From Elainellaceae cyanobacterium (GTDB lineage Bacteria; Cyanobacteriota; Cyanobacteriia; CAZCXK01): a stretch of DNA of 45,233 bases. Below are positions 1,695 to 29,268 of this stretch, piece by piece; position 1 is the stretch's first letter, and each line of letters starts with the position of its first letter. The position numbers and the translations under genes are program-made. The stretch is from assembly GCA_051117555.1 (NCBI GenBank), contig JBNPEG010000001.1:1-45233 (forward strand), written 5' to 3'. The notes below the pieces were generated by a model. It did no database searches. It was not told the origin of the DNA and worked only from the letters and a program-made list of their open reading frames with translations.

Positions 1695-1778
1695 TGGGGT
1701 AATGGGATGATGGAGTGGTGGAGTGATCAAGTCATCTCCATCACTCCCTTACTCCCTTACTCCCTTACTCCCTTACTT
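1693..1778. repeat. Short tandem repeats (8-bp ACTCCCTT x4) with a complementary GGAGTG arm between convergent genes
   Basis: ACTCCCTT repeats at ~1743-1777; GATGGAGTGGTGGAGTGAT at ~1707-1727 can pair with them. Confidence 0.75.
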
Positions 1779-2063
1779 CTAAACGGGCGATCGCCAGCGA
1801 ATCAGATAACTCATCACATCACCTTGTTCGGGTGTGATAATGATGCCCGTTTCAGGTACGTGAAGTAGCGGACTCCACAATCGCTGCTCCACATAGCCCA
1901 GCACATGTAGATGATGAATAGTACTTTGCACACCGTTGGTAGAACCGAGCAGAATATGCCGCAAGGGTTCTCGCTCAGGTTGAGCAGTAGGAGAGACGAG
2001 CAATAGCGGACTGTTCGCCTCACCCTCAAGGGCAGGCGATGAAGTATTAGGTAAGTATGTCAC
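1779..2063 (-). CDS. Small conserved cyanobacterial hypothetical protein (~94 aa from GTG)
   Basis: GGAGG 7 nt before GTG at 2063; EPLRHILLGS...TIHHLHVLGY...WSPLL...G.VMS.L motif. Confidence 0.7.
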   Translation of the reverse strand: MTYLPNTSSPALEGEANSPLLLVSPTAQPEREPLRHILLGSTNGVQSTIHHLHVLGYVEQRLWSPLLHVPETGIIITPEQGDVMSYLIRWRSPV

Positions 2064-2508
2064 TGGGATTCCTCCGAGAGTGAGTAGGGTAAGGAATCCC
2101 AACAACTTGGCCGTCCCAGACGGTGTACAGTGCGAGACGGCCTAGAATAAATCTAGCCTTCGCGACTGGCTGCTTCAGTCGTGGGGGTTAGGTATCGGGT
2201 TTTGTTGGCTGCAATTCCCGGTACCGCCTGACCAAGTTCTTGGGAAAACAAGCTGCGGACAAAACAGCTATAGCTCAAAACGCTACCGAATTTGACGAAC
2301 CAAGTCAAGTCAAATTTGATACTAATTTTGGATGAGATGATCGGATGAGCACAGTGCAACTGTTGTGAATGATGCACTCGCGCTTCAGAATTTCTTAATG
2401 GCACGTTTTGGTGGAGAGTGGATAGGATGAGGGGCGACTAGGTCGCTTTTACTCTGCCGTTGTTTATCCGTCCACTGAGGTTCTCCCATGGAACTGAGCA
2501 AGATGAGG

Positions 2509-3830: not shown

Positions 3831-4322
3831 ATGGGAAGAATGACAAAGGAAAAATATGGAGACCAGTATCAACTTCATCTTCTGGAGCAATATAAGCTTT
3901 ATGTAGAAATGGCAGATCGAATTAGCGCTAGAAGATTACAGACCAACGGTTTTTATATCACACTTCTTTCCGGTCTGCTAACGCTTCTCTCATTTCTGAA
4001 TGTAGATAAAGATCAAGAAGTTCATACTCAAAATAATATTTTTTTTCTTGTTGTCGGCGTAATTGGACTGACATTATGTGCTACGTGGCTCTTTAATATT
4101 CGCTCATTCAAACAGATTAATTCGCTCAAGTTTAAAGTAATTCATGAAATGGAACAGAATTTACCCTTCCCTTGCTATAGCAGAGAATGGGAAATTCTAA
4201 AACAAGATGGAAGCCGAGAGAAGTATTTAAGACAAACAAAGATTGAGCAATTTATCCCTTTTATTCTCGCGGTTCCCTATTGTGGATTCATTCTCTATTG
4301 GCTTAGGAGTCTACTTTTTTAG
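3831..4322 (+). CDS. Multi-TM membrane protein, RipA/8xMP-like octameric membrane protein family
   Basis: LLEQYKLYVEMADRISARR...N.FY, W...I.SFKQINS.KFKVI.EME..LP and T.IEQFIP motifs; about three hydrophobic segments; 12 nt after the TIR gene. Confidence 0.7.
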   Translation: MGRMTKEKYGDQYQLHLLEQYKLYVEMADRISARRLQTNGFYITLLSGLLTLLSFLNVDKDQEVHTQNNIFFLVVGVIGLTLCATWLFNIRSFKQINSLKFKVIHEMEQNLPFPCYSREWEILKQDGSREKYLRQTKIEQFIPFILAVPYCGFILYWLRSLLF

Positions 4323-4483
4323 TGCGATTGCTCCCTCTGCGAATTCAGTTGACATAAGGAAACCCAACATCAAACCCGTTAGATCACCTCATTAATTCCC
4401 CATGCTAAACAATTGAGGAATTTACCAGAGTGCTAATCCTATCAATGACTCAATGGTAGCAATCGCCCGTGACTTTTTAGGGG

Positions 4484-4599
4484 GCGATCGCCCCTTGTCG
4501 CTCTAAAAGGTAGTACTACAAAAACTCCTGACGGTAAGTTTTTGTGGAAAGTGGATAGGATGAGGGGCAATTAGGCGAAGTTTGTTAAGGGGCGATCGC
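4484..4599. mobile_element. HIP1-terminated ~115-bp MITE-like element, copy 1
   Basis: Ends GCGATCGCCCCTT...AAGGGGCGATCGC are inverted repeats; internal hairpin CTACAAAAACT/AGTTTTTGTGG. Confidence 0.7.
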
Positions 4600-4684
4600 T
4601 CAGTGTGTTTTGTGACAATTACGCTGAAGTTTGCACATATGATGTGATTAGGAATGTCGCGTGTCTTCATAGACACCTCAACAC

Positions 4685-4909
4685 ATGGAAGTTCTAAAAC
4701 TAACAGCAACAATCGATGAATCTGGATATCTCAACGTCAGAATTCCGACAGAGTTAGCCTCGGTTGACGTTAACGTGGTGGTCATTCTAAATCCGGTTTC
4801 ACCATCTGAGCACTTGCATTCCAAATACGACTTTTCTGATCTAGCTGGCCGACTGGCCTGGCAAGGCGACGCGGTGACCGCACAGAGGTCATTACGAGAT
4901 GAATGGTAA
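4685..4909 (+). CDS. Putative antitoxin (VapB-like partner)
   Basis: 74 aa ending in QRSLRDEW, overlapping the downstream PIN gene. Confidence 0.75.
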   Translation: MEVLKLTATIDESGYLNVRIPTELASVDVNVVVILNPVSPSEHLHSKYDFSDLAGRLAWQGDAVTAQRSLRDEW

Positions 4910-5279
4910 TGATCGCTATGTGCTAGACACAAATGCTATTGTTACGCTATTGCGGGGAGATTATCGACTGGTTGAGTTGTTGAGCAACGCAAGCTGGATC
5001 GGCATCTCCATTATTAGCCAAATCGAGTTTTTAGCGTTTTCCGACCTCAGCCAGGATGACCGCAATCTGTTCCGACAGTTTCTACAGCGAATCGACGTTG
5101 TTGGATTAACAGTCGGCGATGAAGTATTAGTTGAGAAAATCGTTGAAATTCGTCAGCAGTATCGGTTAAAACTACCAGATGCGATAATTGCAGCGATCGC
5201 AATCCAAAACACAGCCTCTTTGGTAACGGCTGATAAGGAATTTACCAAGGTGCCAATTCTATCAATGACTCAATGGTAG
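4899..5279 (+). CDS. vapC: PIN-domain VapC toxin
   Basis: YVLDTN, ISQIE, LKLPDAIIAA and LVTAD PIN motifs. Confidence 0.92.
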   Translation: MNGNDRYVLDTNAIVTLLRGDYRLVELLSNASWIGISIISQIEFLAFSDLSQDDRNLFRQFLQRIDVVGLTVGDEVLVEKIVEIRQQYRLKLPDAIIAAIAIQNTASLVTADKEFTKVPILSMTQW

Positions 5280-5303
5280 CGATCGCACGTGACTTTTTAG
5301 GGG

Positions 5304-5418
5304 GCGATCGCCCCTTATCGCTCTAAAAGGTAGCACCACAAAAACTCCTGACGGTAAGTTTTTGTGGAGAGTGGACAGGATTAGGGGCGATTAGGTGAAG
5401 TAGTTGATGGGCGATCGA
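5304..5418. mobile_element. HIP1-terminated MITE-like element, copy 2
   Basis: Near-identical to 4484-4599; perfect CCACAAAAACT/AGTTTTTGTGG stem; right HIP1 degenerate (GCGATCGA). Confidence 0.7.
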
Positions 5419-5534
5419 TTTACCCTCTTTCACTGAGTCTCTTATTATGGGATTGTTCAACACAATTCCGCATAACATTCTGCTAAAAATGGGATCTGAT
5501 TTCATTGAAGCTACTAAACGGTAAGGCTTTAGAC

Positions 5535-5587
5535 AAATTAAAGTCCCAGATCTTATGCCGAAAAATCCCGTCTAATCATTGTTGTAC
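5535..5587 (+). other. Putative attI-like recombination site, copy A (…CGTCTAATCATT GTTGTAC)
   Basis: ~50 bp shared with 6712-6764 and 7817-7869; identity stops right after GTT. Confidence 0.6.
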
Positions 5588-5786
5588 TGCCTGAGTTCTC
5601 GGTTAGGATATAAGTTAAAGCCTGTAAGTTGCAAATGCTTAATGCATCCAAATCTGGGTTTGAGGTTTGGTTGAGCAAGTGTTAATGAGATAAAATCGAG
5701 GCAGAGTCATACTGGCTACAGTTTTCAACTCTAGAAGGTAAGCAGTATGGTAGCGGCTTGAATCAGCACAATGAGGGCTTGAGCTA

Positions 5787-5993
5787 ATGACTTTTAGTGA
5801 TGTGGTTGAAGTGATCAAAAGTCTTTCCACAGATGAGAAGCGCGAAATTCATCTGTTGTTGCAGCAGTACCTCCGTGAAGAGCGCCGGGACGAAATACAT
5901 AACAACTTCGAGTTAGCGCAAGTTGAGCAGCAAAAAGGTGAACTGAAGTTTTCCTCCAACATTGAAGAACTGAAACAGTTGATAGAGGAATAA
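5787..5993 (+). CDS. Putative antitoxin paired with YafQ-like toxin
   Basis: 68-aa acidic ORF ending 2 nt before a RelE-superfamily toxin. Confidence 0.75.
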   Translation: MTFSDVVEVIKSLSTDEKREIHLLLQQYLREERRDEIHNNFELAQVEQQKGELKFSSNIEELKQLIEE

Positions 5994-5995
5994 TT

Positions 5996-6262
5996 GTGGA
6001 GGTCAGTTTCAGTTCTCCATTTAAACGGGCTTTCAAGAAGCGCATCAAAGGCAATGCAGATCTAGAGGCAAGATTTTGGCAAAAGTTGGAACAATTCACC
6101 ACAGATCCGTTTGACCCAAGTTTGAAAACGCATAAACTATCGGGCAAGCTCAAAGAGTTTTGGAGTTTTAGCGTAGATTACGATGAAAGAGTGTTGTTCT
6201 ACTTTATGGAAGACGGAAAGGCTGTGTTTGTAGATATCGGTAGCCATGATGAGGTGTATTGA
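5996..6262 (+). CDS. RelE/YafQ-family mRNA interferase toxin
   Basis: FKRAFKK, PSLKTHKLSG.L, WSFSV.YD.R and DIGSHDEVY motifs. Confidence 0.88.
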   Translation: MEVSFSSPFKRAFKKRIKGNADLEARFWQKLEQFTTDPFDPSLKTHKLSGKLKEFWSFSVDYDERVLFYFMEDGKAVFVDIGSHDEVY

Positions 6263-6399
6263 GAGCATTCAACATCAAACCCCGTTATATCACCTCATTA
6301 ATTACCCATCCTAAAAATTCTCCAGCGGGTAATCCCAACCCTATCGCCGAGCCAACACACCGGGATCTATCTACTTCTTTAAAGTTGTCACCCGATGCC

Positions 6400-6465
6400 G
6401 CCTCTTTAGTAACGGCTAATAAGGAATTTATCAAGGTGCTAATCCTATCAATTACTCAGTGGTAG
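6400..6465 (+). pseudogene. Duplicated 3' tail of vapC (shorter copy also at ~4416-4459)
   Basis: Matches ~5214-5279 (ASLVTA.KEF.KV.ILS.TQW*). Confidence 0.85.
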
Positions 6466-6488
6466 CGATCGCCCGTGACCTTTTTGGG

Positions 6489-6604
6489 GCGATCGCCCCT
6501 TGTCGTTCTAAAAGGTAGTACTACAAAAACTCCCTGACGGTAAGTTTTTGTGGAGAGTGGATAGGATTAGGAGCGATTAGGTGAAGTCTGTTAAGGGCGA
6601 TCGC
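6489..6604. mobile_element. HIP1-terminated MITE-like element, copy 3
   Basis: Near-identical to 4484-4599. Confidence 0.7.
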
Positions 6605-6627
6605 TCAGTGTGTTTTGTGATAATTAC

Positions 6628-6712
6628 ATTGTTACGCTATTGCGGGGAGATTATCGACTGGTTGAGTTGTTGAGCAACGCAAGTTGGATCGGCATCTCCA
6701 TTATTGGCCAAA
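6628..6712 (+). pseudogene. Internal vapC fragment (IVTLLRGDYRLVELLSNASWIGISII)
   Basis: Near-identical to ~4938-5022. Confidence 0.88.
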
Positions 6713-6764
6713 AATCAAAGTCCCAGATTTTATACCGAAAGATTCCGTCTAATCATTGTTGGCC
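6712..6764 (+). other. Putative attI-like site, copy B (…CGTCTAATCATT GTTGGCC)
   Basis: Shared with copies A and C up to GTT at 6758-6760. Confidence 0.6.
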
Positions 6765-6893
6765 TGCTTCAATCCTCGCTTGGGACAGGACTCAAATCGC
6801 TTCTGTTGAGTACCGAAAGCGATCGCATTAATACCCCATGTCACACCGAAAATTGTATTGACAATGTAAATACAGCTTGCCTACACTACAGAC

Positions 6894-7190
6894 ATGGATG
6901 TGTATTTCGTACTCAACGGCATTACTTTCGTCTGGAATGACGAAAAAGCCAAGATCAACTCGATCAGCCATGATGGTGTTACGTTTCAGCAAGCCACAGA
7001 AGCCTTCTTCGATCCACTACTTGTGGTTGTTGATGCTAGTCGTAATGATGAAGCGCGAGATGCCATTATTGGTTTAGATAGGCGTTGGAACTTGCTGTAC
7101 GTTGTCTTTGTTGAGCGGGAAAACGACATCATTCGGATCATTTCGGCTCGTAAAGCAACACGGAAGGAACGGGAATTTTATGAAACCTGA
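6894..7190 (+). CDS. brnT: BrnT-family toxin
   Basis: F.WN.EKA..N...H.GVTF..A.E.F.DP and IIRIISARKAT..ER..Y motifs. Confidence 0.9.
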   Translation: MDVYFVLNGITFVWNDEKAKINSISHDGVTFQQATEAFFDPLLVVVDASRNDEARDAIIGLDRRWNLLYVVFVERENDIIRIISARKATRKEREFYET

Positions 7191-7464
7191 GGCGTTGAAA
7201 AAGCGGTTGGATAGGAATCGTCCCATGACAACAATCACCATTCGTATGCCTGAAGATGTGATTGAAGATTTGAAGCAAGTTGCACCCCTGCTTGGTTTTT
7301 CTGGGTATCAACCTCTAGTGCGCGCTTATATTGGACAAGGGTTGCGAGCTGACTTGGAGCGTTTAGAAGGTGATACAGTACCTGCATTGATTGCAAGCCT
7401 CAAGCGTCACGGTGTCAGTGATGAAGTGATTCAAGAGGCACTAGGCGAAGTGACTGGGCGTTAG
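7180..7464 (+). CDS. BrnA/CopG-like RHH antitoxin
   Basis: ATG at 7180 overlaps the brnT end; ITIRMPEDVIEDLK...GYQPLVRAYI. Confidence 0.82.
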   Translation: MKPEALKKRLDRNRPMTTITIRMPEDVIEDLKQVAPLLGFSGYQPLVRAYIGQGLRADLERLEGDTVPALIASLKRHGVSDEVIQEALGEVTGR

Positions 7465-7488
7465 TTTGATCCTGGGTTGCCGCCAGCA

Positions 7489-7575
7489 TCCCAACAACCC
7501 CAACGCAGGGGACAGACGAGAGCCGCTGGTGCTAAGTTTGAGGTGAGCTGCTGCCGCTGGTCGGGAACGTCATGT
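7489..7575 (+). other. Degenerate attC site
   Basis: R'' TCCCAAC (7489-7495), L arms GCAGGGGAC…GCCGCTG, R' mutated to GTCATGT (7569-7575); same layout and length as the 9505-9590 site. Confidence 0.6.
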
Positions 7576-7596
7576 TGCCTCAAGTTATTGGTGGAG

Positions 7597-7709
7597 GCGA
7601 TCGCCCCTTATCGCTCTAAGAGAGAGTACTACAACTCCTGATGGTAAGTCTCTGTGGAGAGTGGACAGGATTAGGAGCGATTAGGCGAAGTCTGTTAAGG
7701 GGCGATCGC
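7597..7709. mobile_element. HIP1-terminated MITE-like element, copy 4
   Basis: 14-bp perfect terminal inverted repeat GCGATCGCCCCTTA/TAAGGGGCGATCGC. Confidence 0.7.
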
Positions 7710-7732
7710 TCAGTGTGTTTTGTGATAATTAC

Positions 7733-7817
7733 ATTGTTGCGCTGTTGCGGGGAGATTATCGACTGGTTGAGTTGTTGAGCAACGCAAGTTGGATCGGCAT
7801 CTCCATTATTAGCCAAA
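7733..7817 (+). pseudogene. Internal vapC fragment, second copy
   Basis: Near-identical to 6628-6712 and ~4938-5022. Confidence 0.85.
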
Positions 7818-7869
7818 AATCAAAGTCCCAGATCTTATGCCGAAAGATTCCGTCTAATCATTGTTAGGC
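7817..7869 (+). other. Putative attI-like site, copy C (…CGTCTAATCATT GTTAGGC)
   Basis: Ends in the canonical integron core GTTRRRY = GTTAGGC at 7863-7869. Confidence 0.65.
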
Positions 7870-7947
7870 GGCAGATACCTCGGAGTAGAAAATTACGGTT
7901 AAAGGCAGGGTGGCGAGGTGAGTTTTTGCGCTGAGTAGTGATTCAAA

Positions 7948-8480
7948 ATGACTGAAAATCTGACTTTCTCAAAATTTAAGGCTCAAGAATTTGATCCGAT
8001 ATCTGGACTGCTGTGCAATATTTTCGATACAACAAGGCCAGAGCTAGAATTGCTCTACAAAGAAGTAATTAACGATTTCGGTAAAGATGGGTGGCCGCCT
8101 CATTTTGTTCGGCGAAATTTCTTCAGGAGTCAGCATCAAGATTTTCAAAAAATATATGAAACATCCCCTTCAATTGCTATAGACTTGCCAAGTCTCTTTA
8201 CTACGGTGTAAAACTACCGAGAGCGGATCAAGAAAAATTTATAAGTACTTTGAAATTAGAAAATCTGGCTATGAGTCTCGTTGCTCTAGTTACCTGGGGG
8301 AAAGAGTCAGCGAATAGTGTTAAGGAATTAGATCTCAATATTCAGCACTTGAATTTTCCCCACCCTAGTGGCGCTGCCAATGGAACTTGGAAAAAGTTGA
8401 TGAATCAATCTCCTCCCTATGAAAATAAGCTGGTATACTGGAGTTCCGAGATCTCAAAGGTGCTACCTAAAAGTATCTGA
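7948..8480 (+). pseudogene. Disrupted gene, possibly uracil-DNA-glycosylase-like superfamily (fragments 7948-8211 and 8250-8480)
   Basis: Second fragment has LVTWG and FPHPSGAAN, resembling the UDG-superfamily HPS motif; no continuous ORF. Confidence 0.4.
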
Positions 8481-8518
8481 TGAGTTTGATCTAAGCATTA
8501 ATAATCGCAGTCTAAATC

Positions 8519-8824
8519 ATGAGCGATAAAGAAGTTATTTCTGAATTCATACAAGTCAAACAAGAAAGTAATGGAATTCAGCTCCTTGTTCGTGGTATAT
8601 CCTGGCCACATCCTCATGAACCCGTATCTAGTTGGACAGTAGCCTCTGTACTCCCACAAACCTCCTCACCTCAGGAAGTAGATTTCAAAATTCAAGCAAT
8701 TCTGCAAAACAAGCAATATTTTCAAGTTTGCCAGGAGTGTGGGGAGCGGAATCCTCGTGGTTGGATGCATAATGATGGCATCTGCCAGAGTTGTGCCGAG
8801 AAGAATCATGGCGTTGTCTACTAA
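8519..8824 (+). CDS. Hypothetical protein with C-terminal CxxC...CxxC putative zinc ribbon
   Basis: CQEC...CQSC in a 101-aa ORF. Confidence 0.7.
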   Translation: MSDKEVISEFIQVKQESNGIQLLVRGISWPHPHEPVSSWTVASVLPQTSSPQEVDFKIQAILQNKQYFQVCQECGERNPRGWMHNDGICQSCAEKNHGVVY

Positions 8825-8851
8825 ACGCAAGCTATACGGGAGCCGAGTGTT

Positions 8852-9112
8852 ATGACTATCTCTTTGGATTTACCATTAGAGCTAGAGAATGAGCTTTCTG
8901 CTGAGGCTTCCCAGCTTAAATTGCCTCTAGCAGAGTATATTCTTCGCGTTCTCTCCTTTCGCCCTTTTCTACAAAATCCTCCCACAACAGGGGTGGAGCT
9001 GGTTGCCTACTGGGAGAGCGTTGGGGTAATTAACTCTCGACCCGATATTGCTGACAGCCAGGAGCACGCCCGCCAGTTGCGCGACCAAGCTGAACACCGT
9101 GAGCGGGCTTAG
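8852..9112 (+). CDS. Putative antitoxin (RHH-like N-terminus)
   Basis: MTISLDLP.ELE..L..EA; ends 7 nt upstream of a PIN toxin. Confidence 0.75.
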   Translation: MTISLDLPLELENELSAEASQLKLPLAEYILRVLSFRPFLQNPPTTGVELVAYWESVGVINSRPDIADSQEHARQLRDQAEHRERA

Positions 9113-9119
9113 GTAGCGA

Positions 9120-9500
9120 ATGTACCTTGTCGATACCGATGTCATGATCGATATTCAGCGAGGGTATGCGCCAGCACTGGCTTGGTTTGCCTCTGTCCGA
9201 GAACTGCCGAGCATCCCAGGCTTTGTGGTGATGGAATTAATTCAGGACGCTCAGAACAAGCAGCAGGTGCGGAAAGTCCTACAGCTTGTAGCGCCTTTGA
9301 CCATCGTTTGGCCTACCGAAACTGACTGTGCTCGGGCTTTGTCTGATTTCACCGCTTATCATCTGGCTCACAAGGTTGGTTTGATTGATGCCTTGATTGC
9401 GGCCTGTGCTGTTGGGCGTAGCGCAACCCTCTGTACTTTCAACGTGAAGCACTACCAAGTCATCTCAGGCTTGAGTCTGGAGCAACCCTATAGTCGCTAA
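9120..9500 (+). CDS. vapC: PIN-domain VapC toxin
   Basis: YLVDTDVMID, VMEL, IDALIAA and TFNVKHY motifs. Confidence 0.92.
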   Translation: MYLVDTDVMIDIQRGYAPALAWFASVRELPSIPGFVVMELIQDAQNKQQVRKVLQLVAPLTIVWPTETDCARALSDFTAYHLAHKVGLIDALIAACAVGRSATLCTFNVKHYQVISGLSLEQPYSR

Positions 9501-9504
9501 AGCC

Positions 9505-9590
9505 GCCTAACACCTCCTTGGTGCGGACGGTATAGAGGTTATCGGTGGGAGTTCGAGGTTATCTGCCGCCGCTCAACTTAGCCGTTCTAC
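9505..9590 (+). other. attC site (86 bp)
   Basis: R'' GCCTAAC 9505-9511 just after the vapC stop; L'' TTGGTGCGG pairs with L' CCGCTCAA with an extrahelical base; R' GTTCTAC 9584-9590. Confidence 0.8.
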
Positions 9591-9747
9591 TGATTCATCC
9601 AAGAGGTCTGGTAGCCTTTGAGTTCCGGTTGTTAGACATCAAGTATTGAATCGGAACTAGAGAAAGGGATCGTTGTCTAGCTTTGTCATGACTGGTGAAT
9701 GCCAGATTGTGAAATAGAGGTGGCAAACTACTATTTTTGAGAAATCC

Positions 9748-9978
9748 ATGTCCTCTGCTGCTATTGCCACGATTGTGAAGATGGTTGAATCCTTGCCCGA
9801 TGAGTTGCAGGAAAAAGTCGTAGAACACATCCGAGACTACATTGCGGATTTAGAAGATGAGAAGCGTTGGGATACCTTATTCCAACGGACACAGAGTAAT
9901 CTAGTCGCGGCAGCCCGGAAAGCGAAGCAGGAAACTGCAGCGGGGCAATCGGTGCCAATGGACTATGAGCAACTATGA
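9748..9978 (+). CDS. Putative antitoxin of a RelE/ParE-like pair
   Basis: 76-aa acidic ORF (…DEKRWD..F…PMDYEQL); stop overlaps the next ATG. Confidence 0.72.
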   Translation: MSSAAIATIVKMVESLPDELQEKVVEHIRDYIADLEDEKRWDTLFQRTQSNLVAAARKAKQETAAGQSVPMDYEQL

Positions 9979-10058
9979 AGTCTGCCACGCTGCCCTCTTT
10001 TTGGTCGAGGTATCGAAAATTAAGCAGTTCCATGAGGGCAAGGGCTGGCAAGGGATGA
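9975..10058 (+). pseudogene. Truncated RelE/ParE-like toxin (27 aa)
   Basis: ATGA overlap; MKSATLPSFW..YR.L resembles a toxin N-terminus, then an early stop. Confidence 0.6.
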
Positions 10059-10273
10059 AGCGCAAATAGACAACGATGATGAAACCGATGTAGCTAGTAG
10101 GTTCGGTTAAACAGCGTGTTCGCGTAGCGTCTCCAGCGGAGAAAACCCAACATCAACACTGTTACATCACTCCATCAACGTGCCCATACTAACAGTGCCT
10201 TAATGGGTCAATCCTATACATTACCGCCGCACCAATACGCCAATAGCCGCATAGAGTAAGAGACGTGCTAGCC

Positions 10274-10338
10274 GCGATCGCCACCCAACTCAATTGGTGC
10301 AAGTGGACTTTCTCTACCCGCCTGATTCGAGCCCTCCA
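10274..10338 (+). repeat. Right copy of the DUF3370 3'-end direct repeat (putative island boundary)
   Basis: Encodes QLVQVDFLYPPDSSPP; starts at a HIP1 site. Confidence 0.9.
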
Positions 10339-10379
10339 CTGCTCACACAGAGTTCACAAGCGATTTAGGATCGGCTATA
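10336..10379. mobile_element. Right half of the MITE found complete at 23140-23231
   Basis: TTCACAAGCGATTTAGGATC shared. Confidence 0.7.
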
Positions 10380-10457
10380 TATACTAGATCGCAGTAGTTG
10401 CGTGCTGATGAAAACACATGTCCGCGCTTTGGTTTCAAGCAGGAGTCATGTCCTAAG

Positions 10458-10776: not shown

Positions 10777-12387
10777 TTATGCTAGAGCAAAGTTGTCGGC
10801 GGTAAAGTTGGCTAGGTCAGCAACATCTGTGATGCTTTCCATGTTGGCAAGCACGTTAAATTCACCCCCCTCGCTAAGATTTTGAGAATGGACAAGTCGA
10901 CCAATTCCGAATGTCTCGTTGAAGTAGACAAATACCCCTTCTTGCGACGTAACTTGGTTGTTATCGGCGATCGCCTGAGCTGCTGCTCCTGCATTGGCAA
11001 AGCCGTCTTGCAGAATCACGACAGTCGTGTTGCCTGCAAGATCATCGGATAGGGCATTCTGAAATGCGATCGCATCAATGCCGAGTTCATTCCCGTTGAG
11101 CACATACTGATCATTTGCAATCTCATAGTCGGAGATGCGATCGGTCGTACCTAGGGCATTGCTACCGTAGACAAAGCGATCGCGCCCTGAGCCGCCAGTC
11201 AGAGCATCCACCCCCGCTCCACCTGTGAGCATATCGTCAGAACTACCTCCAATGAGGGTGTCATCACCGTCTCCACCGTCTGCATTGATTTCAACGCCAG
11301 CGGCAGCCGCATTGAGAACGTCGTTGCCCAATCCTCCGTTAAAAAACACCAATCTAAGATCGGTGTTTGAAACATCACTGACTTCAAATGAGTCGTTACC
11401 ATCATTTCCGTTCAGCTCCATGATTTCAGCCTCGGTGATATTGAGCGTAAACGGACCGGGATTCACTCGGTCAAAGATTGCTACGCCGTTTTCCTGTCGG
11501 AGCGTAAACTGTTCATCTCTACTTCCACCATTTACGGCAGCAGTATCGATGCCCTCACCACCAACCATCACGTCGCTGCCACCACCAGGATTCCAAATCA
11601 TGCGATCGTCGCCCGCGCCGCCTAGCATGATGTCATCGCCGCGATCGCCATCAATTACATCATTGCCGTCGCCGCCTTGCAGAAAGTCGTCTGCATCGCC
11701 CCCAATCAAGGTGTCATCCCCCGCATCGCCATTCGCGCTGATCGGAGTTGTTGTCTCACTGGCGTCAAGGCTGTCATTGCCATCGCCACCGTTAAAGACC
11801 ACCAAGTCGACATCGGTATTTGACAAATCTCCCACAGTAAAGGAATCATCCCCCCCTCCTGCATTCAACGCAACGATTTCAGTTCCATCAATATTGAGAT
11901 TGAAGGGAAACGGATCGACGCGATCAAAGATGGCGCGTCTACCATTTTGCACGAGCGTAAAGATTTCACCTGCGCCCCCTCCATTCGCTACTGCCGTGTC
12001 ATTGCCCGCGCCACCCCGCATGATGTCGTCGCCATCACCCGGATTCCAAATCATTCGGTCATTGCCTCCACCCCCCCGCATGGTGTCATCTCCTGCATCA
12101 CCGATGAGGATGTCGTCTCCACTTCCGCCTCCGAGTATATCGTTGTCATCGCCACCACGCAGTTTGTCATCCCCTCCACCCCCACGGAGGTTATCGTTTC
12201 CAGCCTGTCCTCGAATCGTGTCGTTACCGCGTCGTCCCTGGGCTCTATCCTCTCCAGCACCGGCAATGATAATGTCGTCTCCATTTTTACCCTGGATAAA
12301 ATCATCGCCTCCTAATCCGAGAATGCGATCGCTTTCTCCGGTGCCCAATAGTTGGTTATTGTCGTTATCACCAATAATGCGAGCCAT
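10777..12387 (-). CDS. RTX/hemolysin-type calcium-binding repeat protein
   Basis: Many GGxGxD nonapeptides; AGGAG RBS; duplicated internal block (RMIWNPG…AIFDRV.P.PF.LNI). Confidence 0.9.
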   Translation of the reverse strand: MARIIGDNDNNQLLGTGESDRILGLGGDDFIQGKNGDDIIIAGAGEDRAQGRRGNDTIRGQAGNDNLRGGGGDDKLRGGDDNDILGGGSGDDILIGDAGDDTMRGGGGNDRMIWNPGDGDDIMRGGAGNDTAVANGGGAGEIFTLVQNGRRAIFDRVDPFPFNLNIDGTEIVALNAGGGDDSFTVGDLSNTDVDLVVFNGGDGNDSLDASETTTPISANGDAGDDTLIGGDADDFLQGGDGNDVIDGDRGDDIMLGGAGDDRMIWNPGGGSDVMVGGEGIDTAAVNGGSRDEQFTLRQENGVAIFDRVNPGPFTLNITEAEIMELNGNDGNDSFEVSDVSNTDLRLVFFNGGLGNDVLNAAAAGVEINADGGDGDDTLIGGSSDDMLTGGAGVDALTGGSGRDRFVYGSNALGTTDRISDYEIANDQYVLNGNELGIDAIAFQNALSDDLAGNTTVVILQDGFANAGAAAQAIADNNQVTSQEGVFVYFNETFGIGRLVHSQNLSEGGEFNVLANMESITDVADLANFTADNFALA

Positions 12388-27039: not shown

Positions 27040-29268
27040 TTATTCTGATAATCGAGCCTGTCGAGTATCGAAAAGGAACCGAATTTCATCCAGCACCTTA
27101 TCCAGATCTAATGGCTTACTAAAGTAAGCATCAGCCCCGGCTTCAAGACAGCGATGGCGATCGCCTGCCATCGCCATCGCAGTGAGCGCAATCACCGGAA
27201 CATCCTGCCAAAGTTTATGGGCTTTTAGTTGTTTCAAGAGCTGAAAGCCATCAACACCCGGCAATTGAATATCCATCAAAATCAAATCCGGCAACGTCTG
27301 TTGAGTAACGAACTCCGAGTGAATCGTCTCAGACATCGTTGCTCCCTCAATGATGATTTCGACATGATATCCTTCAGATTCTAAAAACTCCGAAATCAAT
27401 ACCTGGTTATAAGGCTGATCTTCAACGACTAAAATGCGCTGAACTCCGGGTCTGGAAACATAGTCAGGGCGTCGTGACGCGGCAAAGTCTTCAAAGTCGG
27501 ATTGAGGCTCTACACGCTCTGACAACTCCTGCTTAAGCTCAGTCAAGGGTAGCCAGATACGAAACTTACTACCCTGCCCTTCAGTCGATTGAAACGACAC
27601 CGTCCCCCCGTGCAACTCTGCCAATCGCTTGGTTAGTGCTAATCCTAAACCTGTTCCGTCGTGACGGCGATTTAATGATGCATCAATCTGCTGAAATGGC
27701 TGAAACAAAAGATGCTGTTTATTTTGAGAGACTCCAATTCCTGAATCAGCAACCTCTAAAAGTAAATAGGGTGTACTCGAATTAACCGGACTTTGGTCAG
27801 GGCGGATGTCGTGTAACAACTGTTCTCCATACGCTAACTTGCCGGAAAGTTTAATCACACCTCTCTCAGGGGTGAATTTCACCGCGTTTGACAGTAAATT
27901 GACGATCATTTGTCGAACCCGACGTTCGTCCAAGATGACCTGTTCGAGAGGATAATCTAGCTCTAAGGTAAGATCGAGGCGCTTTTTATCGGCGGTTGGC
28001 TGAATCATGCGCAGGCAATCGCGGCAAAGGCTCGTGATACAAACCTGCCTCAGGTCAAGCTCGACTTTACCCGCTTCAACTTTAGACAGATCGAGAATCT
28101 CATTAATCAGTTGTAGGAGATGATGACCACTGCGTTCGATGGCTTGCACATGTCGAATCTGGCGATCGCCCAGTTGATGGGAGACTTGCCGCTGGAGCAA
28201 ATCTGCGAATCCAAGAATGCTGTTGAGCGGCGTTCTGAGTTCGTGGGACATCGATGCCAAGAATTCTGACTTGAGTCGGGATGCCTGCTCCAAATCTTTA
28301 TTAATGCTCCAAAGCCGAGCTTCCGATCGGGCCCGCTCGATCGCCGCCCCCAGCGTGCGACAAGCCGCCAGCAGCATATCCTGCTGGGGAGCATCTTGAA
28401 GCTTGCGAAGATTTCGAGATTCTAATGTTAAAACGCCGATAATCGTGCCATCGGCGGCAGGGATTGGGAAAATACCAAGTTGCCCAATTCCAGGATATCT
28501 AAAGCCCTGAAATGCTCTGGGATGATTGGCATAATCTTCAACAAAGATTGGCTTGCCCGTTTCAACGACATCCCAGAGCAGACCCTGCCCGTATGGAATG
28601 CCCTTCCATAAGTAGCCTTCCATTTCTTGGACAGCAGGTTCTCCATAGGTGGCAATAAATTCGCTGGCAATTTGGTTGGTAATGGGTGCTGCATGGCGAT
28701 CGTATCCGGTGCCTCGAATTACCTTAACATCACCAAAAGCCGCATCCATCGCTTGCACGAGATACGAGAGTGCAAATTTGCCAATTTCTCGCATGCCCTC
28801 GGAAGTTTGGAGTCGTTCGGTGAGCCCCAATAAAAAGGTGAGCCGACGCACCTCGGCATTGAGATCAGCCTGAGCCTTTCGTTGGATGGTCACATCCCGA
28901 AAGTTAAAGAGTCGCCCTCCCTCTGAAGTGGCGCTGGCATAGACCTCTAGACACATCCCATTGGGCTGCGTTAATGAAAAGGACGTTCCAATTTGACGGG
29001 TTTGTGCAAACGCTTGTTCAACCGTGTGTTGCTGGTCGCTCGTCCAGCATCCTTGGCAAGCAATCTCAGAAAACACATCACCGTAGCGCGGTTGTTGAAC
29101 CAGCCAACTCGGAATTAAGCCCCACATTTGGGTGAGTTTTTGATTAAACAAGATTAAGCGACCGTCGCGATCAAACAGAGCGATCGCATTATCAACCTGA
29201 TCTAGAATCAGCGCCTGCTCGGCTTGGAGTCGCTGTAAACGTAAATCAATTTCTTCGGCAGAGATCAT
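27040..29268 (-). CDS. Hybrid sensor histidine kinase (PAS-GAF-HisKA-HATPase-REC); start uncertain
   Basis: SHELRTPLN, NLLSNAVKFT, DSGIG, GTGLGL, LMDIQLP; ATG 29268 is more plausible than 29535. Confidence 0.9.
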   Translation of the reverse strand: MISAEEIDLRLQRLQAEQALILDQVDNAIALFDRDGRLILFNQKLTQMWGLIPSWLVQQPRYGDVFSEIACQGCWTSDQQHTVEQAFAQTRQIGTSFSLTQPNGMCLEVYASATSEGGRLFNFRDVTIQRKAQADLNAEVRRLTFLLGLTERLQTSEGMREIGKFALSYLVQAMDAAFGDVKVIRGTGYDRHAAPITNQIASEFIATYGEPAVQEMEGYLWKGIPYGQGLLWDVVETGKPIFVEDYANHPRAFQGFRYPGIGQLGIFPIPAADGTIIGVLTLESRNLRKLQDAPQQDMLLAACRTLGAAIERARSEARLWSINKDLEQASRLKSEFLASMSHELRTPLNSILGFADLLQRQVSHQLGDRQIRHVQAIERSGHHLLQLINEILDLSKVEAGKVELDLRQVCITSLCRDCLRMIQPTADKKRLDLTLELDYPLEQVILDERRVRQMIVNLLSNAVKFTPERGVIKLSGKLAYGEQLLHDIRPDQSPVNSSTPYLLLEVADSGIGVSQNKQHLLFQPFQQIDASLNRRHDGTGLGLALTKRLAELHGGTVSFQSTEGQGSKFRIWLPLTELKQELSERVEPQSDFEDFAASRRPDYVSRPGVQRILVVEDQPYNQVLISEFLESEGYHVEIIIEGATMSETIHSEFVTQQTLPDLILMDIQLPGVDGFQLLKQLKAHKLWQDVPVIALTAMAMAGDRHRCLEAGADAYFSKPLDLDKVLDEIRFLFDTRQARLSE

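Follow-up and report, generated by a model that had tools for sequence, protein, structure and literature searches.

Orphan attI-type sites in a probable decayed integron array of a cyanobacterial chromosome

In class 1 integrons the attachment site attI1 is a duplex, non-hairpin site that contains the crossover point G/TT (the slash marks the point of exchange) in a GTTRRRY-type box, together with an inverted core box and upstream accessory direct repeats. The Vibrio superintegron has a species-specific family of attC sites, toxin-antitoxin (TA) cassettes and a fixed chromosomal location. Here we describe a locus in the draft genome (6.06 Mb, 256 contigs) of an Elainellaceae cyanobacterium, analysed within a window that comprises the first 45,233 bases of the 104-kb contig C248. 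Three copies of a 49-nt repeat lie within this locus, which is probably a decayed chromosomal integron array, that is, a group of clustered attC sites without an integron integrase (CALIN), with multiplied orphan attI sites.

The sites in the window share with attI1 the non-hairpin form and the G/TT crossover and have a putative inverted core box and accessory repeats, and at homologous loci the site lies, as attI1 does, between a divergent integrase gene (intI) and the first cassette. Unlike attI1, the window copies have no adjoining intI, are reduced units and number three per array; moreover, whereas attI1 has two direct repeats, the full cyanobacterial site consists of four regular tandem units of ~40 bp. 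Like the Vibrio superintegron, the locus combines a mutually similar attC family and TA cassettes with a chromosomal location, but the arrays are short and scattered (at least 22 attC matches on 14 contigs), intI has been lost locally and several attI are present.

According to Cury 2016 (PMC4889954), CALINs are defined by attC alone, are proposed to originate by intI loss or rearrangement, and in about half of cases lie in genomes encoding IntI elsewhere, while IntegronFinder finds attI by exact match to classes 1-3 only. In keeping with that description, the window has two attC sites 1.9 kb apart and no intI nearby, and an IntI is encoded elsewhere in the genome; an orphan attI inside the array departs from the concept. 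As with the isolated cassettes at attG sites in Loot et al. (10.1101/2022.09.11.507474), the cassettes stand away from an intI-attI platform, but the receiving site here derives from attI and is conserved, unlike an arbitrary GTT in the genome. CALINs, intI loss, TA cassettes and secondary insertion sites are already known from these two sources (PMC4889954; 10.1101/2022.09.11.507474). No report of an orphan attI multiplied inside an array was found in the open-access literature.

The 49-nt repeat, attC sites and cassettes

An earlier note, made from the sequence alone, had described a repeat of ~50 bp in three copies, each followed by different cargo, and had interpreted it as an integron attI platform that was multiplied and then captured cassettes. 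The observation as a whole was borne out, while its interpretation was supported in part only. The three attI units (E1-E3) and the cargo blocks are listed below, where start/R'' matches and repeats A and B are as described further on.

5535-5583, + strand: attI unit copy 1 (E1), crossover GTT at 5581-5583
5584-6262, + strand: cargo 1, a 68-aa open reading frame (ORF; 5787-5993) and a YafQ/RelE-type toxin (5996-6262; PF15738, 32.7 bits, cut-off 30)
6712-6760, + strand: attI unit copy 2 (E2), crossover GTT at 6758-6760
6759-7571, + strand: cassette 2, brnT (6894-7190), putative brnA (7180-7464) and attC (7486-7577, triplet GTC at 7569-7571)
7572-7599, + strand: first 28 nt of cassette X, cut at a GCGATCGC site by fusion to repeat B
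7817-7865, + strand: attI unit copy 3 (E3), crossover GTT at 7863-7865, matched by BLASTN to the attI of G002:C13
7864-9586, + strand: cassette 3, ORFs 7948-8211, 8250-8480, 8519-8824 and 8852-9112, PIN toxin (9120-9500) and attC (9502-9592)
9585-10139, + strand: remnant of cassette 4, a 76-aa ORF (9748-9978) and a 27-codon stub (from the ORF list and translation)

A degenerate 44-nt pattern of the repeat matched 5540-5583, 6717-6760 and 7822-7865, all on the + strand, and had no match in any of 100 shuffles. The repeat is 44-49 nt long, and the three window copies were the sole matches in the 6.06-Mb genome when up to three mismatches were allowed. Identity is 93.9% over 49 nt between copies 1 and 3, 95.1% over 61 nt between copies 2 and 3, and 87.5% over 56 nt between copies 1 and 2. 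It stops right after GTT, as had been reported, with GTACTGC, GGCCTGC and AGGCGGC following in copies 1, 2 and 3, respectively. All 11 copies compared, from 5 genomes, diverge exactly past GTT, and a metagenome contig (run X1) that matches 5456-5583 diverges directly after 5583. Each unit consists of a putative accessory repeat (..TTATGCCGAAAGATTC..) and a candidate inverted core box (GTCTAAT), then a short spacer and the G/TT crossover box; core box, spacer and crossover can be read in the sequence as GTCTAAT-CATT-GTTAGGC.

For 150-nt stretches on either strand, fold z-scores lay between -0.2 and -1.5, which confirms the description of the repeat as a non-hairpin site. An attC covariance model scored the attI units at 10.7 bits or less, and Rfam gave zero matches at gathering thresholds over the whole window and zero at E<=1 over 4300-10400. 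The alternative assignment of the 49-nt site as an unusual attC was ruled out, as it folds without significant structure.

Both attC hairpins that had been placed at 7489-7575 and 9505-9590 were recovered, with extents of 7486-7577 and 9502-9592. A covariance model built from 19 sites, none of them from the window (R2), scored the first at 61.1 bits (E 3.4e-13) and the second at 81.2 bits (E 2.8e-18), with zero further attC sites across the 45-kb window at E<=1. The second hairpin has the boxes GCCTAAC and GTTCTAC, and a fourth unit starts at this GTTCTAC (9584-9590), as the earlier note had it; the first has the box TCCCAAC, yet its crossover triplet is GTC and not GTT. By R2, our own family model, the locus has the layout of a CALIN, with two attC sites 1.9 kb apart and no intI on the contig; the intI beside the array that would make a complete integron is absent from the window.

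The window hairpins share a conserved core with a family scattered through the genome. Another covariance model (R1), from a 12-sequence alignment, found at least 22 attC matches at E<=0.01 on 14 contigs of this genome (150 of 1281 candidates were scored, and 8 of the 22 are training sequences). Compensatory changes were present in 8 of 11 pairs of the 12-sequence alignment. The inner helix of the 19-site alignment comprises 11 pairs with 93.8% of cells paired and 8 pairs changed on both sides; its covariation score was 0.545 compared to 0.114 in shuffles, of which none of 500 reached the observed value.

In a cassette array, the bases that follow G/TT are the reverse complement of the R'' box of the cassette's own attC. 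The 7 nt after GTT were compared with the reverse complement of the 7 nt before the AAC of the next attC in 11 attI-cassette-attC triplets (2 from the window, 6 from orphan sites elsewhere and 3 adjacent to intI). Cognate matches averaged 5.73 of 7 positions, against 3.78 for the 110 non-cognate pairs, and the observed sum was reached in none of 20,000 permutations. Cassette 3 has a start/R'' match of 7/7, which extends to 10/10, and cassette 2 one of 5/7; the exact 7-mer R'' boxes GTACAAC (cargo 1) and GGCCAAC (cargo 2) do not occur downstream. In a metagenome contig from run X3, the 3' end of an attC stands before a cassette 3 homologue, with the same boundary. Because the cassettes behind copies 2 and 3 end in attC and join exactly at G/TT, their junctions were presumably made by integron-integrase recombination. 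The claim that each copy captured cassettes is therefore probable for copies 2 and 3, on the evidence of attC and the start/R'' match, and does not extend to copy 1, which has neither.

As described, the three copies carry three different cargoes by Pfam: a YafQ-type toxin, BrnT (PF04365, 79.7 bits) and a five-ORF block that ends with a PIN/VapC toxin (PF01850, 35.8 bits). All toxin domains, including that of a second PIN toxin upstream of copy 1 (57.6 bits), score above the Pfam cut-offs; the cargo 1 toxin scored 38.2 bits against TIGR00053, below cut-off. The partner ORFs are adjacent and have no family match above cut-off, the putative brnA being a 94-aa ORF with a weak CopG match below it. 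The attC models gave no match for cargo 1 or for the cassette 4 remnant. A promoter-like TTGACA-18-TACACT lies at 6858-6887, in cassette 2. The promoter and terminator scan returned 4 promoter-like sites against 9.6 expected by chance, and thus offers no sign that the attI element holds a cassette promoter.

Homologous sites beside integrase genes and at other loci

The repeat and its homologues in the sister genomes G001 and G002 and in G036 and G269, both from other families, were compared with eight intI loci (six full-length genes and two fragments), among them loci of the window's own genome (G000), of G002, of G026 from another family and of G007. Sequence of the E type aligns over its full length ~90-240 bp upstream of the intI start, on the strand divergent from intI, with scores of 69 at G002:C13, 53 at G002:C66, 48 at G026:C72 and 32 at G026:C54. 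A weaker alignment is present at G000:C211, the locus that the shuffle controls cover (score 41-42; shuffles mean 11, s.d. 1.7-1.9, maximum 19-23). At G007:C55 and the two intI-fragment loci there were zero alignments with a score of 24 or more.

A multiple alignment resolves the intI-adjacent sites into a tandem series of four ~40-bp units, each built as ..TATGCGGAAAGATTC..CTAAT... Whether a copy is orphan or adjoins intI, its last unit ends in ..TCTAAT-N4-6-GTT and the first cassette comes next. It is with this last, crossover-proximal unit that the window repeat aligns, and a BLASTN search of the window with the attI of G002:C13 matched copy 3 at 86.5% over 37 nt (E 2.7e-7). Of the four units, one is left in copies 2 and 3, and copy 1 has one and a degenerate second. 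The proposed attI-type identity was thus upheld, as homologous sites adjoin intact intI genes, diverge from them and share the same end. On this homology the 49-nt repeat is an attI remnant, namely the unit next to the crossover in the attI of a lineage of cyanobacterial integrons; since the window copies have no adjoining intI, they are attI-derived orphans.

Outside its own genome the 3' half of the repeat was found at 5 sites in G002 and 1 site in G001, and also in G036 and G269; at least 5 of 401 sampled genomes of the class carry the repeat, two candidates having been scored per genome. Three further attI sites of the window's own genome were compared (start/R'' matches read by eye from the strings):

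C168: attI beside a deleted intI, 96% identical to the attI of G002:C66, start/R'' 6/7
C7: orphan attI of four units, 86.8% identical to the G036 site, start/R'' 7/7
C182: four-unit orphan attI flanked by attC sites and preceded by a PIN fragment, with 84.3% identity to the G036 site, start/R'' 5/7

At C182:26556-28658 (locus L041), the four-unit site occupies 27400-27554 on the - strand; a truncated PIN-like ORF immediately precedes it, and of the attC matches around it the two upstream are weaker and the two downstream are strong. In the genome G269 (99% complete) no integron integrase scores above cut-off, yet this genome carries a four-unit attI, one cassette with a GNAT-like ORF (read by eye) and an attC of 71.2 bits, located between ordinary chromosomal genes at C1:1333650-1334490 (locus L048, 1350-2190). 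In the window's own genome, one intact intI contrasts with at least 7 attI-type sites and at least 22 attC matches on 14 contigs. Orphan attI at other loci and in other genomes make them a recurrent feature that is not peculiar to the window.

The earlier note had also called the array integrase-less. This holds for the locus and its contig: there is no intI on the 104-kb contig, tblastn of six IntI proteins against the window gave a best E of 0.36, and tblastn found no intI remnant between ORF108, a conserved neighbour of the array head, and the array. It does not hold for the genome, which encodes an intact IntI on C211 (TIGR02249, 466 bits, cut-off 265). The only other TIGR02249 matches in this genome are fragments on C168, where an internally deleted intI (C168:29988-30451, locus L040) has N-terminal residues 17-52 abutting C-terminal residues 277-314. 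This deleted gene adjoins the attI that is 96% identical to that of the intact integron at G002:C66, a state that points to recent loss of that integrase from this genome. The genomes of relatives hold several integron integrases.

Duplication history and alternative explanations

The attI copies are embedded in larger repeats, which are listed here with the conserved neighbour of the array head.

1779-2105, - strand: ORF108, conserved neighbour of the array head (by synteny)
2398-2443, + strand: remnant of repeat B at the putative ancestral array head (platform copy 0, attI lost), 89.5% over 38 nt
4357-4409, 6263-6315 and 10140-10192, + strand: repeat A (by repeat finding and BLASTN), also present in G002 and G001
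4416-4622, + strand: copy of repeat B, with a vapC 3' remnant, HIP1 hairpin and ~160 nt of non-coding DNA (by BLASTN)
4685-5279, + strand: intact vapBC, a 74-aa ORF and a 126-aa PIN toxin (PF01850, 57.6 bits), just upstream of copy 1
5236-5534, + strand: repeat B and stretch x, the more complete form of the upstream portion of the attI element (by alignment with six G002/G001 copies)
6422-6711, + strand: repeat B and a vapC 5' fragment (6628-6711, matching 4938-5022 at 97.6% over 85 nt), upstream of copy 2
7593-7816, + strand: repeat B' and the same vapC 5' fragment (7733-7816), 92.7% over 274 nt to 6488-6760

Repeat B opens with the last vapC codons and a GGGGCGATCGCCCC hairpin. Copy 1 follows the intact vapBC (the vapC gene spans 4899-5279 and falls below the cut-off of the VapC NCBIfam models), a full repeat B and the 92-nt stretch x. 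In the sister genomes G002 and G001 the attI element usually has this upstream stretch, and the 5236-5534 region is 90% identical over 376 nt to G002:C74. Upstream of copies 2 and 3, 85-nt vapC 5' fragments are 97.6% and 96.5% identical to the intact gene (BLASTN), and the ~270 nt before the units, made up of repeat B and this fragment, are common to both, with differences at ~20 positions over 274 nt. Since copies 2 and 3 share both fusion points, they are duplicates of one rearranged unit, and the proposal that the attI platform was multiplied is sustained by these two common deletion junctions.

The head of the array can be placed by synteny. Window positions 1775-2443 match G002:C7 at 92.5%, and in G002:C7 the 3' end of a DUF3370 gene and an ORF108 homologue are followed directly by the end of repeat B, x, an attI unit and cassettes. 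In the window, ~3 kb (TPR and 8xMP genes, repeats A and B, vapBC) lies between the array-head B remnant and copy 1.

We propose a model in which the region from 2.4 to 10.3 kb is an array anchored downstream of the DUF3370 gene and ORF108, whose integrase gene would have been lost while the landing site survived and is now present threefold. Two deletions would have fused repeat B to the vapC 5' fragment and this fragment to the last attI unit. For the attI copies as such, ordinary duplication and deletion are the most likely source, rather than an integrase; ordinary recombination and deletion explain them at least as well as integrase-driven spread. The cassette junctions behind copies 2 and 3 would have been made by an integrase encoded elsewhere in the genome or since lost, and the array is probably frozen or turning over slowly. 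In large chromosomal integrons, TA cassettes counter deletion of DNA; by analogy, the TA cargo probably protects this region from deletion. The toxin fragments right upstream of attI, in the window and at C182, would fit tolerated deletions that started inside the toxin gene.

An explanation that we consider unlikely is that an attI-bearing unit, made up of a TA gene or its remnant, repeat B and attI, was moved by an integrase as a cassette and seeded nested platforms. Such a unit would be excised as a circle, by exchange of the attI unit with an attC or attI that lies upstream, then re-inserted at another attC or attI, a route that remains doubtful here although attI x attC is the preferred integron reaction according to Cury 2016 (PMC4889954). 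Three attI-bearing units are bounded by crossovers on both sides: 7572-7865, after attC 7486-7577; a unit at G002:C74 that starts with the same 28 nt, but directly after another attI unit; and the PIN fragment with four-unit attI between attC sites at C182. This pattern does not discriminate, because any DNA behind an attC has a crossover at its left. The difference between the window and G002 is more simply explained as insertion or excision of brnTA at attI: 7572-7599 is identical at 28 of 31 nt to the stretch after an attI unit in G002:C74, a likeness that fits gain or loss of brnTA at attI since the species split, although the orthology of the attI copies is uncertain. In addition, the window unit owes its left part to a fusion at a GCGATCGC site that was not made by an integrase, and the deletion junctions common to copies 2 and 3 point to plain duplication. 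Every pattern that favours mobility of TA and attI together has a simpler explanation, and we regard the notion of the landing site as cargo, excised and re-inserted like a cassette, as a tentative one. If true, it would give an array several insertion points, each guarded by an addiction module, and gene capture could go on after local loss of intI.

The remaining alternatives are less plausible still. Cassettes might have entered at secondary genomic attG sites, for which little beyond a GTT is required; according to Loot et al. (10.1101/2022.09.11.507474), cassette insertion by integrases can take place outside att sites. The same authors state that attG sites are very unlike att sites in both sequence and structure, and here the same 49-nt site, homologous to intI-adjacent attI, precedes cassettes in 5 genomes, which leaves this reading scarcely credible. 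The repeat could instead be a non-integron promoter or leader module, or an element resembling a miniature inverted-repeat transposable element (MITE), spread by homologous recombination with GTT at its end by coincidence. The copies are indeed embedded in larger repeats (B, vapC fragments) rich in GCGATCGC sites, palindromes that are typical of cyanobacteria and frequent in this DNA, and the region is a mosaic of deletions. Such an origin is nevertheless very unlikely: it is contradicted by homology to intI-adjacent sites at no fewer than four loci, the cognate attC junction signature holds, promoter-like sites are fewer than expected (4 against 9.6), no Rfam match was found over the window and no terminal inverted repeats were seen. 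Finally, in a short-read assembly of 256 contigs, repeats of ~280 nt at 93% identity could have been collapsed, expanded or flanked by mis-ordered cargo, and the best sequencing run found contains at most 16% of sampled words, with no RNA run turning up. We judge such an artefact highly improbable, as ~20 differences over 274 nt let reads separate the copies and the sister genome G002 independently holds 5 such sites. Contigs from runs X1 and X2 bridge E2 to cargo 2 (6707-6911), attC to B' (7432-7606 and 7547-7740) and the vapC fragment to E3 (7703-7867); none of the metagenome contigs spans two repeats.

Several points weigh against the preferred reading of a decayed array with multiplied orphan attI sites. 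Cargo 1 lacks an attC, and between its start and the AAC-proximal bases of repeat A only ~2/7 positions agree (hand count). The GTC triplet of the first attC means that the brnTA cassette may be immobile. In the junction test, 4 of the 11 cognate pairs have the same cassette start and are hence not independent, and one pair (G036) matches at just 2/7. The single-unit copies E2 and E3, and E1 with its degenerate second unit, may bind integrase poorly; copies 2 and 3, trimmed to one attI unit, may be inactive. The C211 IntI, which may act on the window sites in trans, is 67-71% identical to the IntIs beside E-like attI sites, and its own attI is diverged in the last unit. The short metagenome contigs confirm single junctions only, and the sample of origin is possibly their source.

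These results suggest that attI landing sites can outlive their integrase, be copied without the enzyme and still sit at exact cassette junctions. Surveys built on intI and attC miss such sites, and arrays termed integrase-less may hide functional or recently functional attI. The comparison also provides a sequence definition of a cyanobacterial attI family, as four tandem ~40-bp units ending in ..TCTAAT-N4-6-G/TT. Should the sites be active in trans, one integrase could serve many scattered arrays.

Surroundings of the array

Two copies of a 66-bp direct repeat flank the locus.

306-371, + strand: DUF3370 gene 3' end, left copy of the direct repeat (PF11850 on ORF 2-403)
10274-10339, + strand: right copy of the DUF3370 3'-end repeat, 88% identical over 66 nt

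The pair brackets the whole 10-kb cassette region and could be the trace of a block insertion or rearrangement. ORF108 matches no Pfam or NCBIfam family. An ORF just downstream of the C211 intI (2436-2744, + strand) bears a weak likeness to it, with 37% identity across 35 aa that occupy equal positions in both (pairwise E 8e-5), and the two may represent a conserved integron neighbour.

Repeat A stands after cargo 1 and cargo 4, the blocks without attC. Its sequence (..CCAACATCAAACCCGTTAGATCACC..) resembles R'' and R' boxes minus the hairpin. As a candidate collapsed attC it was rejected: the model gave 9.4 bits (E 1.1), and its AAC-proximal bases matched the starts of the preceding cassettes at ~2/7 and 1/7 (hand count). 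Cargo 1 (5584-6262) is 98.2% identical over 872 nt (5625-6495, repeat A included) to G002:C74, while the flanking chromosomal DNA is 92-94% identical between the two species. This difference suggests recent exchange of, or strong constraint on, cargo 1 together with repeat A.

Positions 419-1774, which include a tandem array and a 156-aa ORF (1224-1694), are absent from the syntenic G002:C7. The tandem array (536-866) consists of 21/42-nt repeats in ~5-10 copies with 68-82% matches and overlaps a 94-aa ORF. The 163-aa ORF at 3831-4322, beside the TPR protein, matches the octameric membrane protein family 8xMP (PF24838, 136.6 bits). Downstream of the array, a 536-aa ORF (10777-12387, - strand) is composed of GGxGxD-type glycine/aspartate repeats, which we take to be RTX-like and calcium-binding.

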